DNA from: Promethearchaeia archaeon
GTDB taxonomy: Archaea > Asgardarchaeota > Lokiarchaeia > Sigyniarchaeales > SOKP01
Reading direction: 5' to 3'
NCBI GenBank assembly: GCA_029856155.1
Contig: JAHQWL010000012.1
Coordinates: 1-10,376, forward strand
Length of the DNA: 10,376 nt
Of the stretch, positions 2,199 through 10,376 are shown piece by piece. The notes beneath the pieces are model-generated. The model searched no databases and had not been told where the DNA came from. It saw only the letters and a program-made list of their open reading frames with translations. Positions within the stretch are counted from its first letter, which is position 1; every line of letters begins with the position of its first letter. Position numbers and translations under genes: made by a program.

Positions 2199-3500
2199 TT
2201 AATACCGTATTGGGGGTTCTTGGCGGAGATGTTTTATTTTACCTTTAAGAATCGGGTCGTCTGTTCGTTTCATCCATTCATATAATTTATTTTTTAATTC
2301 TTTTACAATATCTTTATAGTTGGGATCATCAATTAAGTTATGAATCTCGGTGTGATCCTTTTTTAGATCATAAAGTTCTTCATTAGGTCGAGTTTTCTTA
2401 ATCTGCTCTGACATATATTTTCCAATAGCATCTTGTTGTATATCCATCCCAATTTGATATAGGATTTCTGATTTTTCAAAATTAATTATGTACTTACACT
2501 CTTCAGTTCTAATACTTCGAATAGGGTCATAATATTCATGGAAAGTTTTTTCTGAATATATTTCTTTTCTGAATTTATTAGTTTCACCCTTTAAAAGTGG
2601 CATAAAACTTTTTCCTTCAATATTTTTTGGGATTTTCGCTCCAATTAATTCTAATAAAGTAGGCAACAAATCAATATTACTAATCATTTGATTGTACACC
2701 TTATTATGTTCAAAAATAACTGAACCTGGCCAAGACATTAATAAAAGGGTCTTCAACCCGGGATCATAAAGTGTGCATTTTGCTCTAGGATAAGCTTCTC
2801 CATGGTCAGTAGTATAAATGAATAGAATATTTTCCCTTAAGCCAAGGTCTTCTAATTGCTTAATTATACTTCCAATACAATTGTCAACTCCCTCTATTGC
2901 TCCATAAAATTGAGATAAATCATCCCTTACGATCTTATTATCTGGTAAGTAATGAGGAACTATGACTCCATTTGGATCAACAGGTTCTCCCCAAACTCCG
3001 AAAGGCCGATGTACTTGAGTGACTCCTATACATAAATAGAATGGATTTTCTTCATTCTGATGTGTTTCAAAAAATTTTTGGTAATCTTTATTCATTTTTT
3101 GGCAATTATATAAAGGTTCTGGTCGTCGCTTACTAATTGTATCATAACCTAAACTATAAGCATCAAAAACTTCATGTTGGAACCCCATTAAATGAGTTGT
3201 ATATCCCTGTTCTTTTAGATACATCGGAAGAGTCTTATTTCTTTCCGGTAAAGTCCAACCTCTGTCCACAAGTCCCATAAGTCCATTTTGATGAGGATAA
3301 AGAGATGTTTGAATTCCACCTCTACTTGGACTGCATTGAGGAGCAGTACAAAAATGATTTGTAAATCGTACTCCATTTTCAGCAAGTTTATCTAAATTAG
3401 GAGTGTTAAGAGAATTGGGATTTTGTGGTGAATTATAACATCCAAGAAACTGCCCTTGGTCATGAGTTATAAATAATATGATATTTGGTTTTTCCTTCAT
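2199..3500 (-). CDS. Cys-type formylglycine-dependent sulfatase, N-sulfoglucosamine sulfohydrolase (sulfamidase)-like, 433 aa
   Basis: KPNIILFITHD N-terminus, TPNLDKLA, CSPSR (CxPxR) signature, HRPF, YLPD, TDHG...PRAK.TLYD.G, ELYDL..D..E..NL. No signal peptide. Subfamily is from motif recognition only. Confidence 0.9.
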   Translation of the reverse strand: MKEKPNIILFITHDQGQFLGCYNSPQNPNSLNTPNLDKLAENGVRFTNHFCTAPQCSPSRGGIQTSLYPHQNGLMGLVDRGWTLPERNKTLPMYLKEQGYTTHLMGFQHEVFDAYSLGYDTISKRRPEPLYNCQKMNKDYQKFFETHQNEENPFYLCIGVTQVHRPFGVWGEPVDPNGVIVPHYLPDNKIVRDDLSQFYGAIEGVDNCIGSIIKQLEDLGLRENILFIYTTDHGEAYPRAKCTLYDPGLKTLLLMSWPGSVIFEHNKVYNQMISNIDLLPTLLELIGAKIPKNIEGKSFMPLLKGETNKFRKEIYSEKTFHEYYDPIRSIRTEECKYIINFEKSEILYQIGMDIQQDAIGKYMSEQIKKTRPNEELYDLKKDHTEIHNLIDDPNYKDIVKELKNKLYEWMKRTDDPILKGKIKHLRQEPPIRY

Positions 3501-3518: not shown

Positions 3519-4499
3519 TTACATTTTAACTAATATTTTAATAAATTTTCTTTCACCAGGTTCCAAAAACAGTTGAAATGTATTTTGAATATCTTTTAAA
3601 GATATTACTTTAGAGATGAATTTATTAGGATGCACTTTATTCTTAGCAAATAAATCGATCGCTGCTAAGATGTCTTCCTTATCGTGTCCAAGACAACCTT
3701 TTATAAAAACTTCTTTATTGATAATTTGAAATGTAGGCAGTGAAATGGTTCCTTTTTGGATACCTTCTATTAAGATGGTACCACCTTTTTGAATTAAATC
3801 AATTCCCATTAAGATTGTATTTTCACTTCCAACGGTGTCAAAGATAAAAGATGGGGGTCCGGATGATTTTAATATTTTTCTTATTTTTGCTTTGCTCGGA
3901 GGTAATGAATCAGTTGCACCTAATTCAATTGCCTTTTCCCTTAAAAATTCATGAGGTTCTATGACAATAACATATTGTGGGTTCCTTTCACTTATTATAG
4001 TGTCAAGAAAAGCTAACCCTATATTTCCACCGCCCATGATTAAAATTTTCTCATTCTCTTTTATTCTTGATGTTTTTATTGCTCGTGTAATGTTTGCAAA
4101 TGATTCAATCATAGCTGCATCTTTAATAGAAGTTCCTTGAGGTATAGAGAAAACACTAGTTCTTCTTACTTTAACATATTCTGCAAATCCACCATTTTCA
4201 AAAATACCTAAACCTCTTAATTCACCTTTACCAACATCAAGTGCTACATTCATAGCTACTATTTTATCTCCAATGCTTAAACCTGATATATTTTCACCAA
4301 TTTCTGCTATTTCCCCTGATATTTCATGTCCCATGATTAATGGTACCTGATACATTTTATATTTAAAATTTGTTAAATCGCTCCCGCATATTCCACAATA
4401 ATTAACTTTTACCAGAGCCTCATCTGGTCCAACAATTGGTTCTGGATAATCTTCTCTATAGACTATTTTTTTAATATCCTCAATAACTGCAGCTCTAAT
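3519..4499 (-). CDS. Zn-dependent medium-chain dehydrogenase/reductase (threonine/sorbitol dehydrogenase-like), 326 aa from a proposed ATT start
   Basis: The track ORF (3519..4355) extends in frame by 48 codons: IRAAVIEDIKKIVYREDYPEPIVGPDEALVKVNYCGICGSDLTNFKYK-MYQVPLIMGHE. Contains CGSD, GHE, GGFAEY, the GGGNIG Rossmann motif and a C-terminal KILV. Family call is firm; the start codon is inferred. Confidence 0.88.
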   Translation of the reverse strand: MRAAVIEDIKKIVYREDYPEPIVGPDEALVKVNYCGICGSDLTNFKYKMYQVPLIMGHEISGEIAEIGENISGLSIGDKIVAMNVALDVGKGELRGLGIFENGGFAEYVKVRRTSVFSIPQGTSIKDAAMIESFANITRAIKTSRIKENEKILIMGGGNIGLAFLDTIISERNPQYVIVIEPHEFLREKAIELGATDSLPPSKAKIRKILKSSGPPSFIFDTVGSENTILMGIDLIQKGGTILIEGIQKGTISLPTFQIINKEVFIKGCLGHDKEDILAAIDLFAKNKVHPNKFISKVISLKDIQNTFQLFLEPGERKFIKILVKM

Positions 4500-4506
4500 A
4501 GAATAA

Positions 4507-4514
4507 TCAACTCC
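4507..4514 (-). promoter_or_regulatory. Shine-Dalgarno-like site GGAGTTGA for the MDR gene
   Basis: One mismatch to the archaeal consensus GGAGGTGA, 7 nt upstream of the ATT at 4499. Confidence 0.65.
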
Positions 4515-4570
4515 AATTAGCTTTTATATTATTTCATTTATTTAAGAAAAATAATATATTTTATGTAATT

Positions 4571-4598
4571 TTGAAATAAAAATATAAAAAAAATGAAA
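4571..4598 (-). terminator. Putative archaeal-type oligo(T) terminator after the crotonase gene
   Basis: Minus strand after the TGA reads TTTCA-T8-ATA-T5-ATTTC (T8 at 4586-4593). AT-rich background lowers the significance. Confidence 0.4.
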
Positions 4599-5345
4599 TC
4601 AAATCCCTAATAACGAGCTCATGCTTTTTAAGATTGTGTCAATTTCAGTATCAAAGGTTTTAACTTGATTGAAGAAAATATTGTTTACTTGAAGTAATTG
4701 CTTTACTACATATTCAGGTGATTGAATGATCTGTTTTGCCAAGTTAATTGCCTCATTCAATACTTCCCCTTTCTCAACCAACTTATTAATGATATTCAAC
4801 CGATATGCTTCCTCCGCGGTAAGAAAAGTCTCTTGAGTTCCTGTATTTAATGTAATTTCTAGAGCTTTTCCACGCCCCATAAGAGTCATATAGGGAAAGA
4901 AGAGAGGGCATGCACCAAATCTTATCTCAGGGTGACCAAAAAGGGATCCCTTTGAAGCAACCCGAAGATGACATATAACAGTTAAATCAAAAGCTCCCGC
5001 AAGAGCATATCCATTCACAGCAGCAATTAATAACTTAGGAAATTCAAATATTGTCTGATGAAAAAGATGATTGGAATCGATAAATTGTTGATAGTCTCCT
5101 TTTCCTTGTACTACTGCTTGTACCTCATCTCTATCAAACCCAGCAGAAAAAAGTTCTTCTCCTCCATAGAATATTACTGCTTTTACTCTTTTTTCTTCTT
5201 TAAGAGAATTTAAAGCGTCAATAATTTCTGCTCTCATCGCTTCACTTAAGGCATTTTTCTTTTCAAGGCGATCAAACTTAATTATGGAGATTTTGCCTTT
5301 CTTCTCTACTTTAATATATTGATATTGTTTTTCCATTTTTTCCAA
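4599..5345 (-). CDS. Enoyl-CoA hydratase/isomerase (crotonase) family protein (245-248 aa)
   Basis: KKNALS, FSAGFD oxyanion-hole motif, IAAVNGYALAGAFDL, FGHPEIRFG, AEEAYRLNIINKLV. Start is TTG at 5345 or, more likely, ATG at 5336. Confidence 0.9.
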   Translation of the reverse strand: MEKMEKQYQYIKVEKKGKISIIKFDRLEKKNALSEAMRAEIIDALNSLKEEKRVKAVIFYGGEELFSAGFDRDEVQAVVQGKGDYQQFIDSNHLFHQTIFEFPKLLIAAVNGYALAGAFDLTVICHLRVASKGSLFGHPEIRFGACPLFFPYMTLMGRGKALEITLNTGTQETFLTAEEAYRLNIINKLVEKGEVLNEAINLAKQIIQSPEYVVKQLLQVNNIFFNQVKTFDTEIDTILKSMSSLLGI

Positions 5346-5458: not shown

Positions 5459-5701
5459 ATGAGACCACCTATTTGTAGAATATGTGATAAGAATTTAGTA
5501 GATAAGGATGACGGAGGATTGATATATTTTAAAAAACGCCCTTCTGATAAAGAATGGGAAAATAGAATGGAAGAAATTGGAGGCGTAGGACATCCACCCT
5601 ATGCAGAATGGTTCTGTAAAAATCATTATGAAAGAGCAAAGGAGCTAAAACATTTACCTATCAACGAAGCAATAAAAATCTTAATGTCTGAAAGGCCCTA
5701 A
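5459..5701 (+). CDS. Small hypothetical protein with CxxC...CxxH putative metal (Zn) site, 80 aa
   Basis: ATG start; fills an otherwise empty gap; C6-x2-C9, GHPP, WFC53-x2-H56; protein-like composition. The last 21 nt overlap the convergent mvhD. Confidence 0.75.
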   Translation: MRPPICRICDKNLVDKDDGGLIYFKKRPSDKEWENRMEEIGGVGHPPYAEWFCKNHYERAKELKHLPINEAIKILMSERP

Positions 5702-6115
5702 TTCTTTAATTTGATTAGTGAATTCTGTAATTACCTCAGCAAATCGTTTTCCTTCAGATGCGCTTACCCATTCTAACCGTACCCGCTTAGGATCCACTCC
5801 CAATTGTTTAATTAATATCGAATGTAACCTTTCGAATCTTTCTTGAGTGTATTCATTTCCAGTAATATAATGACAATCGCCTATATGACATCCACTTACA
5901 AGGACACCATCAGCTCCATTTTTTAAAGCTTTTAATACAAATGCAGGATCTACTCGTCCAGAGCACATAACCCTTATAATTCGGATATTGGGAGGATATT
6001 GAAATCGTGAAACTCCTGCTAGATCTGCTCCTGCATAGCTACACCAATTACAACAAAAAACCAAAATGCGTGGTTCAAATTCTTCCCATTTTGCTTTCTT
6101 TTTCGACTTTGCCAT
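5681..6115 (-). CDS. mvhD: MvhD/FlxD-type [2Fe-2S] hydrogenase/heterodisulfide reductase electron-transfer subunit (144 aa)
   Basis: FCCNWCSYAGADLAG, RVMCSGRVDP, GADGV, GCHIGDCHY, WVSASEG. Start moved from the track's GTG (6124) to ATG 6115, because that GTG is part of an AGGTGA RBS 5 nt upstream of the ATG. Confidence 0.95.
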   Translation of the reverse strand: MAKSKKKAKWEEFEPRILVFCCNWCSYAGADLAGVSRFQYPPNIRIIRVMCSGRVDPAFVLKALKNGADGVLVSGCHIGDCHYITGNEYTQERFERLHSILIKQLGVDPKRVRLEWVSASEGKRFAEVITEFTNQIKELGPFRH

Positions 6116-6120
6116 GATTA

Positions 6121-6126
6121 TCACCT
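6121..6126 (-). promoter_or_regulatory. Shine-Dalgarno AGGTGA for mvhD, overlapping the hdrA TAG stop
   Basis: Minus strand reads TTA-TAG-GTGA-TAATC-ATG. Confidence 0.75.
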
Positions 6127-9100
6127 ATAAACCGTTCTTAACTTCCTCCTTTTCTAATAAATAAGAATCAATCATTGTAGAGATCTGGTCAAAATCATAG
6201 TGTTTTACCATTATAGCCCCAACAGGGCAAGTTGCAGCACACGTTCCACAACCTTTGCAGACTGCAGCGTTGATATTAGACTTTTTTACTTTAATACTTA
6301 TATCCTCAAATTCTTTTGTGATCTCTATGAGCTCTATAGCTTTATAAGGACACACGTCTTCACATTTACCACATCCGATACATTTTTCTTCTGAGACTTC
6401 GGCAACTAATCCCGATGTGGTAATTTTATCCGCACTTAAGAATCTACTTGCTCTTCCTGCAGCACCATAAGCTTGTGCAATCGAATCCTGAATGTTTTTT
6501 GGCCATTGTGCACAACCACATAAGAAAATTCCATCAGTAGCAAAATCTAAGGGCCTCAATTTAACATGTGCTTCTAAGAAGAACCCGTTCTTGTCTAATG
6601 GAACTTTCAGCATCATTGCTAATTCTTTTAGGTTGTCTGCCGGAATCATAGGCGTCGAAAGTATTACTAAATCTGTTTCAAATTCGATATTATCTTTTAA
6701 ATTAGTATCATATACTTTTATCTGATATTTTTCAGGGCTTCCTTTTTTCTTTTTTACATCTGGTATATTTTCTAAGTCATATCTTAAAAACATAGCGTCT
6801 CTTCTGCGTTCACGATAATATTCTTCGAATTCTTTTTTAGCCATTTGTAAATCTCTATAAATTACAATAATTTCTAAATCAGGCTTCAATTCTTTTAATA
6901 TTCTAATATTTTTGATTGAATTAGCACAACAAATATTGGAACAGTAAGTTATTCCTTCATTTTGTCTTGCATTTACACATAAAATTAATGTTATCCGATT
7001 AATTTGATCTAACCAAGATTTATCCTTATTTTGTAATTTCTGTTCTAACTCCAATTGAGTCATTACATTCCTATTTTTATCGTGGTATTCAAAAAGCCCT
7101 GATGGTTTAAATTCTTGACCCCCAGTAGCAACTATTATTGTCCCTATTTTTAACTCATGGATTTCGTTATTTGAATCGTTTATCTCTACATCATAATTTC
7201 CGACATAACCTTTAATGTTCTTAATTCCACTATTTAAGAATACCTGAATGTTACTACTTTTCCCTATCTTCTCTTTTGTTTCATTTAATAATTCTAATGC
7301 ATTTTTATGAACGGGATATAACACATTTAGGAATCTTAAGTTTCCCCCCAACTCGTTTTCTTTTTCGACAAGAAAAGTTTTAAATCCTTGATTAGCTATA
7401 TTTAAGGCTGCGCTCATCCCTGAAATGCCTCCACCGATGACTAGAGCTGTATGGGTAATATCTATTTTATCTTCTCTCTGGGGTTTTAATAATTTAGACT
7501 TTGCTACATTCATTCTAATTAAGTCTATGGCTTTATGAGTAGCAGCATCTTTTTGTGTCATATGAACCCAACTGCACTGATCGCGAATATTAACAAGTTC
7601 AAAAAGATATTTGTTTAACCCCGCTTCTTGACATGTTTCTTGAAATAAGCTTTCGTGTGTTCTAGGCGTACAAGATGCCACAATAAATCTATTTAAATCA
7701 TGTTCGGCAATTAATTCTTTAATTCTGATTTGAGAGTCAGATGAACATGAATATAAATTTGCTTCACATACCACTACGTTTGGGAGGTTTTTAACATATT
7801 CTACAACTCGAGGAACATCTACATAATTTCCTATATTAATTCCACAATGACAAACCATTACTCCTATTCTTGGTTTATCTGTAATTTTAACCTCTTTTTC
7901 TGCTATATCAAATATTTTTTCTTTTATTTGAGTAAATTTAACAGAGTTTAATAAATCAGCAATTTGTGCAGCTACTCCACTGGCATCTGCTACTGTTTCT
8001 GGAATATCCATTGGTCCTTGACAGAATCCACATAAGAAAATTCCATTTCTAGTAGATTTTAATTTATCAAAATACGATTTTTCTTGGAAAAAGTTGTATT
8101 TACCTAACTCAATTCCTAAAGAGTTACCTAATTCTTTACCTCCTTTTGATGGAACTAAAGGTGATGCCAGAACAACCAAATTTGCGCGAAAATCTTTAAA
8201 TTCACCTGTTTTTAAGTCCTCAAAATGTATGATTAGATCTTGATTTTCAGGATCTTCCGCAATTGTACTTATTTTTGATTGAAAATATTTAACTCCATAT
8301 TCTTCTTGAGCTCTTTGAGTAAACTCATAGAAATTTTTACCATATGCGCGAATATCATGTCGAAATACATAACATTCTGAATTATCCGAATGCTCTTGGG
8401 TAATTATTGCTTGTTTTGCTGTATACGTACAACAAACACTAGAACAGAAGGGTACATTTTCATGGAGATCTCTTGAACCTGCACACTGAACAAAAGCAAT
8501 TACTTCAGGTTCCTCATCATCACTTAATCTTTTTACATGTCCACTGAATGGACCAGATGCACATAATATCCTCTCATATTCAAGGGCACTTACAACATTT
8601 TCGTACTTATATCCCCATCTTGAAGATAATTTTTCAGCAGGCATTTCAAAACCAGTTGCTACCACTACTGCTCCAATTTTAATTTCAAATTCTTTAGGTT
8701 TCTGTTCAAAATCTATAGCATCAGCAGGGCAGGCTTTTTTGCATATTTGACATACTCCCTTCGTTAAATATAAACACATTTCTGAATCAATTAAATAAAT
8801 AGGAGGTACTGCTTGTGGAAAAGGAATAAATACTGATTTTCTTTTACCAATATTCATTTCAAAAGGATTAGGCGCCATTATTTTAGGGCATTTAGCAGAA
8901 CATTCTCCACATCCTTTGCACTTTATCTCGTCAATATATCGAGGTTTCTTAAGAATTTTCGCAGTAAAATTACCAGGTTCACCATCTACTTCAAGTACCT
9001 CATGATATGTCATTAGTTCAACATTAGGATTACGAAATACTTCGACCATCTTTGGAGCTAATATACATAAGGAACAATCTAATGTTGGAAAAGTCTTATC

Positions 9101-9232
9101 CAGTTGAGCCATTCTCCCTCCAATTGAAGGTGATCTCTCAACTAGGTATACTTTAAATCCTAATTCTGTGAGATCAAGAGAAATTTGTATTCCTGCTATA
9201 CCTCCTCCAATTACTAACACTGAACCCTCCAT
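6125..9232 (-). CDS. hdrA: Large heterodisulfide reductase subunit A-like flavoprotein with two FAD modules (1035 aa)
   Basis: GGGIAG (res 9), GGRMAQLDKTFPTLDCSLC, inserted ferredoxin (CKGCGECSAKCP, CQICKKACP), QCAGSR..CSSVCC; internal HdrA N-terminal domain RIGVMVCHCG (res 455) with SCTPRTHE and NIRDQCSWVH; second GGGISG (~res 600), CSNICC; C-terminal ferredoxin CIGCGKCEDVCP / CKGCGTCAATCP (from res 951). Confidence 0.95.
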   Translation of the reverse strand: MEGSVLVIGGGIAGIQISLDLTELGFKVYLVERSPSIGGRMAQLDKTFPTLDCSLCILAPKMVEVFRNPNVELMTYHEVLEVDGEPGNFTAKILKKPRYIDEIKCKGCGECSAKCPKIMAPNPFEMNIGKRKSVFIPFPQAVPPIYLIDSEMCLYLTKGVCQICKKACPADAIDFEQKPKEFEIKIGAVVVATGFEMPAEKLSSRWGYKYENVVSALEYERILCASGPFSGHVKRLSDDEEPEVIAFVQCAGSRDLHENVPFCSSVCCTYTAKQAIITQEHSDNSECYVFRHDIRAYGKNFYEFTQRAQEEYGVKYFQSKISTIAEDPENQDLIIHFEDLKTGEFKDFRANLVVLASPLVPSKGGKELGNSLGIELGKYNFFQEKSYFDKLKSTRNGIFLCGFCQGPMDIPETVADASGVAAQIADLLNSVKFTQIKEKIFDIAEKEVKITDKPRIGVMVCHCGINIGNYVDVPRVVEYVKNLPNVVVCEANLYSCSSDSQIRIKELIAEHDLNRFIVASCTPRTHESLFQETCQEAGLNKYLFELVNIRDQCSWVHMTQKDAATHKAIDLIRMNVAKSKLLKPQREDKIDITHTALVIGGGISGMSAALNIANQGFKTFLVEKENELGGNLRFLNVLYPVHKNALELLNETKEKIGKSSNIQVFLNSGIKNIKGYVGNYDVEINDSNNEIHELKIGTIIVATGGQEFKPSGLFEYHDKNRNVMTQLELEQKLQNKDKSWLDQINRITLILCVNARQNEGITYCSNICCANSIKNIRILKELKPDLEIIVIYRDLQMAKKEFEEYYRERRRDAMFLRYDLENIPDVKKKKGSPEKYQIKVYDTNLKDNIEFETDLVILSTPMIPADNLKELAMMLKVPLDKNGFFLEAHVKLRPLDFATDGIFLCGCAQWPKNIQDSIAQAYGAAGRASRFLSADKITTSGLVAEVSEEKCIGCGKCEDVCPYKAIELIEITKEFEDISIKVKKSNINAAVCKGCGTCAATCPVGAIMVKHYDFDQISTMIDSYLLEKEEVKNGL

Positions 9233-10376
9233 TATTTTTCTCCCTCTGCCATTGGATTAGAATCAACGACAAATATTAAATTTACTAAGAATTCAGAAAA
9301 ATCCACTATTTCTATTGATGATATATCTTCATAATCTTCTTGTAAACAAGATAAATGCATTTTACACTTTGGGCATGAGGTGACCATTATTTCTCCGACA
9401 TCTTTTGCTTCTAAGAGTCTTTTATATCGCAATGCTTTTGAACGGTCATTACAATTCATCCAAGAGCTCACTCCACAACACAAAGCATCTTTTTTATTGT
9501 GTGCCATTTCATTAAACTTATATCCTATTTTTTTTAAATGGGAAAAAATTTCACGTACATTTTCTATTATATGACTATTTTTAGGCAAAAATCGACTTAA
9601 ACGACATGGATCGTGATAAGTAAATGGGATAAGTTCTTCTTTTTGAGATGGATTTTTAAACTCAATCTTATTTGCTTTCCAATTTTCATATATATACTCA
9701 ATTAAATGTTTAATAATGAATTTTTTATTAAAATCTTCAAAAAGATTTTGATAATCTACTTTAAGTGTCCTATAACATTCAGCACAGGCAGTAATAATTG
9801 TTTTAACACCAGTTTCTTCAATTCTTTTGATATTTTTCTTTGCTAGATTAATAAATTCTTTAAGTTTTCCTTGACCCCAATAAAGATCATGTCCACAACA
9901 GATTTCATCTTGAAGAACTACTATAGGTTCTTTTTCAATCTGGCATAATATTTTCAAAGTGCTTTCTGCTATAGAATTAGAATTTTCAAACTCAAAATTA
10001 AAAAAGGGTAAGCACCCAACATAATACATAATATTTCCTTGTGTTGAAATTTCACATCCCTTTGGAACCCATTCAAGAGATCTCTCGGGTTTTATAGAGG
10101 GTTCGCTCATAATTTCCGAGATAGTGGTATACACCCCCTTATGAGCAATATACTCATCCGGGTCTTGACTATAAGATTCTCGCATTTTGTATTTAGCCAT
10201 TCTTACGATATCTGCGAAATTTATTCCTTCAGGGCAATTTTGAAGACACGCATTGCAAGTTAAACAATCCCATAAAACACCGCTCTCAATAATTTTTTCT
10301 TCAAAACCCTCAAGAATCATTTGAATTATTCTGCTCGGTTCAAAAGTTTGAACTTTACTAAGTTGACATACACCAC
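9232..10376 (-). CDS. hdrD: HdrC-HdrB fusion (HdrD-type) Fe-S oxidoreductase with two CCG domains, 5' end outside window
   Basis: The frame is open upstream of the track's ATG (10320) to the edge (GVCQLSKVQTFEPSRIIQ-MILEG, likely the tail of a first CxxCxxCxxxC motif). CLTCNACLQNCP; CCG motifs C-x37-CC-x36-CxxC and C-x41-CC-x33-CxxC. Stop overlaps the hdrA start (TAATG). Confidence 0.88.
   Translation of the reverse strand, partial: GVCQLSKVQTFEPSRIIQMILEGFEEKIIESGVLWDCLTCNACLQNCPEGINFADIVRMAKYKMRESYSQDPDEYIAHKGVYTTISEIMSEPSIKPERSLEWVPKGCEISTQGNIMYYVGCLPFFNFEFENSNSIAESTLKILCQIEKEPIVVLQDEICCGHDLYWGQGKLKEFINLAKKNIKRIEETGVKTIITACAECYRTLKVDYQNLFEDFNKKFIIKHLIEYIYENWKANKIEFKNPSQKEELIPFTYHDPCRLSRFLPKNSHIIENVREIFSHLKKIGYKFNEMAHNKKDALCCGVSSWMNCNDRSKALRYKRLLEAKDVGEIMVTSCPKCKMHLSCLQEDYEDISSIEIVDFSEFLVNLIFVVDSNPMAEGEK

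Follow-up and report, generated by a model that had tools for sequence, protein, structure and literature searches.

Translation table 11 counts ATT, ATC and ATA among its start codons, and the E. coli gene pcnB has an AUU start. Also infC of E. coli, which encodes IF3, is AUU-initiated (PMC4705826), and the same is true for ebpA of Enterococcus faecalis, whose true N-terminus was missed by annotation from the next ATG (PMC4447247). Regarding archaea, it is described for S. solfataricus that 30S complexes form in vitro on AUU without aIF1 and are rejected in the presence of aIF1 (cited in PMC4705826, a review, and in PMC6237735). Ribosome profiling in Haloferax found about 30% of the novel initiation sites to be near-cognate (PMC7261190), and in eukaryotes non-AUG initiation is tuned by the levels of eIF1 and eIF5 (PMC4705826, PMC3326321). 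A full-text literature search of incomplete coverage gave no description of ATT or ATA starts in Asgard archaea, nor of an aIF1 gene with a start other than AUG. Initiation at AUU as such is known; the dehydrogenase gene described here is, as judged from sequence, a new and well-supported archaeal case, which is set apart by its deep conservation, the compensation by its Shine-Dalgarno (SD) sequence and the large genomic class to which it belongs.

The window, i.e. the whole stretch of DNA that was analysed (10,376 bp), is one entire contig (C12) of a genome (G000) of 4.1 Mb in 104 contigs with 30% GC, and the host of the dehydrogenase gene is an Asgard (Loki-type) archaeon. The following features of the window are relevant for the start of this gene:

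3519..4499, minus strand: full coding sequence of an MDR-type Zn-dependent dehydrogenase, 326 codons from ATT 4499, stop codon at 3521-3519 (translation)
4353..4355, minus strand: internal ATG codon of Met49, the first canonical start (ORF list)
4356..4496, minus strand: dehydrogenase codons 2-48, first strands of the GroES-like domain and Cys38 (translation, Pfam, entropy)
4386..4388, minus strand: TGC codon of Cys38, the catalytic-zinc ligand of the C-G-I-C-G-S-D motif (sequence reading; aligned with CGICGSD of 6ie0 and 4ej6)
4497..4499, minus strand: inferred initiation codon ATT (AUU) (orthologue alignment; onset of coding periodicity)
4500..4598, minus strand: AT-rich spacer of 99 nt that separates the dehydrogenase from the upstream enoyl-CoA hydratase ORF (end at 4599), presumed location of the promoter and a short 5' leader
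4506..4514, minus strand: extended Shine-Dalgarno sequence GGAGTTGAT, 6 nt upstream of the ATT (match to the 16S tail of the lineage)
4524..4526, minus strand: in-frame TAA closing the dehydrogenase frame upstream (sequence reading)

Read on the minus strand, TAA 4526-4524 is followed by the codons AAG CTA ATT GGA GTT GAT TAT TCT, then by ATT 4499-4497 and AGA GCT GCA GTT ATT, and there is no in-frame ATG, GTG or TTG between this TAA and ATG 4355-4353. The standard ORF list calls the dehydrogenase only from 4355, which corresponds to residue 49 when residues are counted from the ATT, as is done throughout. An earlier note on this DNA had claimed that no canonical start exists in this interval and that the 48 codons upstream of ATG 4355 encode the MDR N-terminus including Cys38; the direct reading agrees with the first statement, and translation and Pfam agree with the second one. 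Both Pfam domains score above the Pfam cut-offs, ADH_N at residues 24-120 (profile positions 1-103 of 104, 75 bits) and ADH_zinc_N at residues 176-285 (50.5 bits). Hence, a start at 4355 would cost one quarter of ADH_N and the Zn-ligand Cys38, which is the second Cys of CGICGSD. Furthermore, the alignments with NCBIfam models start at position 2 of the ATT-started protein, and MDR homologues in the PDB share their residue numbering with it from about residue 5-13.

The order of the two domains, ADH_N (GroES-like) and then ADH_zinc_N (Rossmann), represents the MDR architecture. The putative ligands of the catalytic zinc, Cys38 and His58-Glu59 (G-H-E), can be read from the translation, and 6ie0 and 4ej6 have these motifs at the aligned positions; the conserved E-P/E-S Glu, the putative third ligand, is aligned within 'IESFA'. 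The translation contains no Cys at residues 64-140, and thus no four-Cys lobe of the structural zinc. This lobe is present in classical ADHs and missing from several polyol dehydrogenases; its absence places the enzyme with the MDR branches without structural zinc and is still compatible with MDR membership. By its motifs, the enzyme is an MDR of the polyol/threonine/butanediol dehydrogenase branch. It resembles members of this branch (PDB 6ie0, 4ej6, 1pl6; NCBIfam PRK05396, PRK10083) in the combination of ADH_N and ADH_zinc_N, the Cys of CGICGSD, the GHE motif, the GGGNIG dinucleotide loop and the overall length, but differs from them in the missing four-Cys lobe and in staying below all equivalog cut-offs. 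None of the 17 NCBIfam matches reached its equivalog cut-off, the best being PRK05396 with 118 bits compared to a cut-off of 380, and therefore no substrate is assigned to the dehydrogenase. Specific families such as L-threonine 3-dehydrogenase, RspB-like proteins, AdhP and others were rejected, because all 17 scores were far under the cut-offs.

Within 1.5 kb, the orthologues of the dehydrogenase gene often have as neighbours an enoyl-CoA hydratase (in 15 of 43 loci), a Cys-type sulfatase (in 13 of 43) or a PLP-dependent enzyme (in 12 of 43). In the window, the Cys-type sulfatase gene (2199-3500, minus strand) begins 18 nt past the dehydrogenase stop; its product matches Pfam Sulfatase, has the C-S-P-S-R formylglycine motif near the N-terminus and shows no obvious signal peptide. 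Upstream of the dehydrogenase, the gene row at 5681-10320 (minus strand) comprises an MvhD-like gene (FlpD), an HdrA-like flavoprotein of 1035 residues that carries ferredoxin clusters and two FAD/NAD domains, and an HdrB-like gene with a CCG domain, and looks like a module of the heterodisulfide-reductase/electron-bifurcation type.

Loci from 40 related genomes and a species-level genome collection resulted in 41 distinct orthologues with 40-93% identity, and all statistics on them compare rows that are related by descent and not phylogenetically independent. The codon aligned to ATT 4499 is ATT in 31 of these orthologues, ATA in two, ATC in one, ATG in three, GTG in three and ACG in one; the orthologue with ACG (L022) has an in-frame GTG four codons upstream. 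No canonical in-frame codon exists upstream in 24 of the ATT-started orthologues. On the maximum-likelihood orthologue tree, ATT is the state of the backbone with all its deep nodes, and the other codons appear as scattered single tips. Among the ATH codons (ATT, ATA or ATC) of the start column, 31 of 34 (91%) are ATT; in the same genes, 12 conserved Ile columns of the interior have 53% ATT (237), 28% ATA (125) and 20% ATC (89). Replacements by non-Ile codons at the start column are, apart from the ACG of L022, only ATG and GTG and not GTT or GTA. The earlier note had suggested an alignment of orthologous loci and had asked whether ATT or other near-cognate codons recur there or all close orthologues have ATG; the three orthologues with ATG stand against 34 with ATT or the near-cognates ATA and ATC.

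The onset of coding is also visible at the nucleotide level. In 37 AT-rich orthologues, the entropy of codons 2-48 is 0.43/0.27/1.01 at codon positions 1/2/3, while the 48 nt upstream of the ATT show 1.36/1.48/1.31 and no periodicity. This onset of periodicity together with the conservation of the ATT indicates that coding begins at the ATT. At the protein level, the 48 'extra' codons are more conserved (0.84) than the remaining protein (0.72), which together with the entropy pattern rules out an open frame arising by chance. The same data bear on the assumption of a decaying gene or of translation from ATG 4355 alone, which would yield a truncated protein without the 48 residues and Cys38. 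The standard ORF call beginning at 4355 would fit such a truncation, but the 48 codons are under stronger purifying selection than the remaining gene, with wobble at the third position, the frame is intact in the 41 orthologues, and one quarter of ADH_N would be lost with a start at Met49. We regard this explanation as very unlikely.

For an evaluation of the SD sequence the 16S 3' end is needed. No 16S rRNA gene is assembled in G000, and the anti-SD was therefore taken from a closed genome of the same genus (G023, locus L053), in which the match to the 16S model was limited to its last 124 nt. The 16S of this genome ends with ...GGATCACCTCCA, also given as ...CTGGATCACCTCCA, and hence the full SD complement is GGAGGTGAT(C), also written GGAGGTGATC. 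At one position the SD of the dehydrogenase is mismatched with the 16S tail, having T (A in orthologues) instead of the G of the full complement. Its duplex has a predicted energy of -11.8 kcal/mol, and values of -8 or lower are reached in only 8% of the confident ATG genes, which have the consensus GGTGAT at -11..-6. The spacing between SD and start has its optimum at 5-6 nt in this genome, for ATG and ATH starts alike, and the SD of the dehydrogenase ends 6 nt before the ATT; the shorter motif named in the earlier note, GGAGTTGA at 4514-4507, indeed lies 7 nt before it. The SD is kept in the orthologues with the consensus GAGATGAT and the variants AGGTGAT, GAGGTG and GAGGAG. Moreover, the median duplex energy is -6.8 kcal/mol in ATT-started compared to -3.75 kcal/mol in ATG/GTG-started orthologues (one-sided Mann-Whitney p = 0.008, rows not phylogenetically independent). 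Taken together, no canonical start precedes the needed coding sequence, the codon is conserved and aligned with canonical starts, and the spacing to the ribosome binding site is appropriate, as is expected for a near-cognate start.

The SD itself contains an NTG codon, which leads to another explanation, namely a start at the out-of-frame TTG 4510-4508 (ATG in most orthologues) inside GGAG(T/A)TGAT followed by a programmed -1 frameshift within the first four codons. The window and most orthologues have such an NTG 11 nt ahead of the ATT, and in the window its frame is open for 16 codons and ends after a run of seven A. However, this NTG corresponds to the GTG position of the SD complement GGAGGTGAT, and it is missing from the orthologues with a GAGGAG-type SD (L017-L019, L021, L042), which nevertheless have the ATT. 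There is no conserved slippery heptamer, the NTG frame stops after four codons in L003 and L005 and continues elsewhere as unrelated sequence, and the conserved protein frame starts at codon 2. Furthermore, the genome-wide signal of ATH codons described below peaks at a fixed SD spacing without a requirement for NTG. The frameshift was therefore rejected as highly improbable. The ORF opened by this TTG (4463-4510, minus strand) has 15 codons, overlaps the dehydrogenase start out of frame, ends with TAG just after the A7 run (4472-4466) and is probably meaningless; the A7 homopolymer is a place where sequencing indels could arise.

If a different non-canonical codon lying a few codons further upstream, such as ATT 4517-4515, were the start, a slightly longer N-terminus would result. 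It is true that the frame is open for eight codons before ATT 4499 and that some close relatives share the stretch K-L-I-G-(V/D)-D-Y-S, but this stretch is the SD itself, so that its conservation is at the nucleotide level, and ATT 4517 lies upstream of the SD. In about 15 orthologues a stop is found one or two codons before the aligned ATT (e.g. TAA ACT ATT or TGA ATA ATT), and codon periodicity is missing upstream of the ATT. We give very little credence to this possibility for the Loki gene. An in-frame TTG 2-5 codons upstream exists in a few ATT-started orthologues (L005, L017-L019, L042, L045, L050), where it could be an alternative start; it overlaps or abuts the SD. Finally, an assembly or sequencing error or a very recent ATG>ATT mutation, two options which the earlier note had placed beside a genuine AUU start in a probable archaeon and which only the general rarity of ATT starts favours, is practically refuted by the ATT in the independently assembled relative L032 (93% identity) and in 30 further species-level genomes and by the backbone state of the tree, all of which support the genuine AUU start.

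The probable AUU initiation at ATT 4499 is not an isolated case in this genome. For a scan of the whole G000 genome, every 5-mer of GGAGGTGATC in its 16S register was used as anchor, and triplets were considered if at least 100 codons are open behind them, an in-frame stop lies no more than 30 codons upstream, and no canonical start occurs from this stop to 20 codons downstream. At the aligned spacer 5, 35 of 63 such triplets are ATH (18 ATT, 14 ATA, 3 ATC), compared to 24 of 245 at the in-frame control spacers 2, 8, 11 and 14 (Fisher p = 6e-14); at spacer 6 the numbers are 11 of 34 and 25 of 168 (p = 0.025). Canonical starts peak at the same spacers (456 at spacers 3-7 in G000). A window-based scan of SD energy over all codons of the start-less extensions had been dropped in favour of this register-anchored scan, because neighbouring codons caught the signal. 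Of 3,250 non-overlapping long ORFs, at least 46 (1.4%) have an SD 5-mer with ATH behind it inside a start-less extension of at least 20 codons. The genome holds at least about 40 SD-led long ORFs with ATT, ATA or ATC at the start position and no canonical start, and the aIF1 gene is one of them. The scan for further extensions with ribosome binding site and ATT, which the earlier note had proposed, hence shows that the dehydrogenase does not stand alone, and the comparison made there with the rare, isolated AUU starts of infC and pcnB understates the case. Moreover, an SD 5-mer is found in 11.5% of the confident ATG genes but in at least 31% of the ORFs with a start-less extension of at least 30 codons, which indicates that weak start codons go together with strong SDs.

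Ten of the ATH candidates were tested with Pfam, and in all ten the domain begins 2-27 residues past the ATH codon, while the first canonical codon follows only at codon 22-107, far downstream of the domain start. They comprise an actin paralogue, a Ras-family GTPase, an ABC ATPase, a response regulator, myo-inositol-1-phosphate synthase, a hexapeptide protein, an MGMT-like DNA-binding protein, DsrE, HTH_34 and DUF134. Examples of ATH-start loci in G000 are C26:83436-84578(-), C88:63853-64461(-), C41:1105-1893(-), C97:1904-2281(+), C71:94951-96102(-) and C14:53977-54300(-). The ATH-started genes have GGTGA-type SDs at 5-6 nt, and standard ORF calls lose 22-107 of their codons. The actin paralogue has ATT as its start in five genomes, and four orthologues at a larger distance have TTG or ATG at the corresponding position of the alignment, whereas the main lokiactin always has ATG.

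The same scan was applied to small samples of relative genomes, with the following numbers of ATH starts at spacers 5-6 and of canonical SD-led starts at spacers 3-7:

G000, this genome, whole genome: 46 ATH, 456 canonical
G006, same genus, 400 kb: 5 ATH, 50 canonical
G032, another family of the order, 800 kb: 4 ATH, 98 canonical
G049, another order of the class, 400 kb: 0 ATH, 79 canonical (p = 0.001 compared to G000)

On the GC-rich relative G033 (53.5% GC) the scan was swamped by long chance ORFs. The habit of ATH starts appears to be strongest in the family of G000. Two of the ATH genes of G006 are orthologues of ATT genes of G000. In orthologous genes of the two genomes (G006 sample L146-L165 compared to G000 C9:5031-7175 and C44:124720-125337), ATT in G000 corresponds to ATA in G006 and the AGGTGA SD is kept. 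Hence, in some genes the weak codons are interchangeable over a short evolutionary distance, in contrast to the dehydrogenase, where ATT is strongly preferred.

A weak start is also found in the gene of the fidelity factor aIF1. G000 has a single SUI1/aIF1 gene (contig C34:43737-44060, minus strand), which contains neither ATG nor GTG anywhere in its frame of 107 codons, has a zinc-knuckle at codons 9-21 and has an ATT at codon 3 (44054-44052) behind a AAGGTTGTGA motif. Since no ATG or GTG exists in this frame, the start must be ATT 44054-44052. Among 32 loci of the class (L187-L218), the aligned aIF1 start is ATT or ATC in the family of G000, ATA in three other groups and TTG in two, and a clear ATG start practically never occurs.

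The initiator tRNA-Met(CAU) found by ARAGORN is ordinary; it has A1:U72, and its anticodon stem contains three G-C pairs. A tRNA dedicated to initiation at AUU or AUA is thus unsupported, although the tRNA set is incomplete: even with an intron search only 15-23 tRNAs, including tRNA-Sec, were detected in G000, and this low detection is attributed to introns. Within this incompletely detected set nothing points to a special decoding system. The missing 16S gene of G000, the match of only 124 nt in G023 and the few tRNAs suggest many intron-bearing or atypical RNA genes.

Based on these data, the start of the dehydrogenase is most probably a genuine SD-assisted AUU initiation with Met-tRNAi. 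The unusually long SD duplex between GGAGUUGAU and the 16S tail ...GAUCACCUCC would dock the small ribosomal subunit and would thereby set the AUU in the P site at the spacing preferred in the genome, 5-6 nt after the GGTGAT register. The ordinary Met-tRNAi with its anticodon CAU may then pair with AUU despite the third-base mismatch, and the protein would begin with Met, which gives the standard M-R-A-A-V N-terminus of MDR proteins. Given that aIF1 rejects AUU complexes in S. solfataricus, AUU-started genes should be aIF1-sensitive, and by this analogy the AUU probably lowers the output of the dehydrogenase compared to AUG and makes it sensitive to aIF1.

The weak start of aIF1, which is shared with the fidelity-factor genes infC in bacteria and eIF1 in eukaryotes, makes an aIF1-dependent control common to the AUU/AUA genes plausible. 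It is possible rather than probable, and here we only speculate, that a lineage-wide set of SD-led AUU/AUA genes exists (at least about 1.4% of the long ORFs, including the actin paralogue and the Ras-like GTPase), whose output is jointly set by the level of an aIF1 that is itself AUU-started.

Compared to infC, pcnB and ebpA, the Loki gene has likewise a near-cognate AUU at the start position behind an SD, and a lower, fidelity-factor-sensitive expression is expected for it as well; as with ebpA, its true N-terminus is lost when the next ATG is annotated as the start. In contrast to these bacterial genes, its host has aIF1, aIF1A and aIF2, i.e. eukaryote-type factors, and no IF3, and the codon is conserved over a family-level clade, with dozens of such starts in the genome and not two or three. 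Furthermore, unlike infC it encodes a metabolic enzyme and not a fidelity factor; in G000 it is the aIF1 gene, on another contig, whose product is the factor discriminating against weak start codons such as its own. Regarding the near-cognate initiation of eukaryotes, the homologous factors eIF1 and aIF1 police third-base mismatches, the gene of the factor is itself weak-started, as is the aIF1 of G000 with its ATT, and the set of weak starts could respond together. However, the Loki genes would use neither scanning nor a Kozak context but SD pairing at a fixed spacing. The data from S. solfataricus and Haloferax agree with the present case in showing archaeal ribosomes to be able to engage near-cognate codons, with aIF1 acting against it, but they concern in vitro complexes or unvalidated minor sites that were set aside by the authors, whereas the Loki AUU is the sole and conserved start of a full-length conserved enzyme.

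Gene finders limited to ATG, GTG and TTG cut this enzyme by 48 residues, including a catalytic ligand, and dozens of other proteins of G000 are truncated in the same way, among them eukaryote-like signature proteins such as the actin paralogue and the small GTPase. Structure predictions, phylogenies and expression constructs based on such truncated models would be wrong. Generally, the clade-wide combination of AUU with an extended SD, which is weaker where the codon reverts to ATG or GTG, provides evidence from nature that starts with a third-base mismatch can be used productively by archaeal ribosomes that work with eukaryote-type factors, given strong docking by the SD. If the ATH genes respond jointly to the dosage of aIF1, Asgard archaea would hold a forerunner of the eukaryotic control of start stringency.
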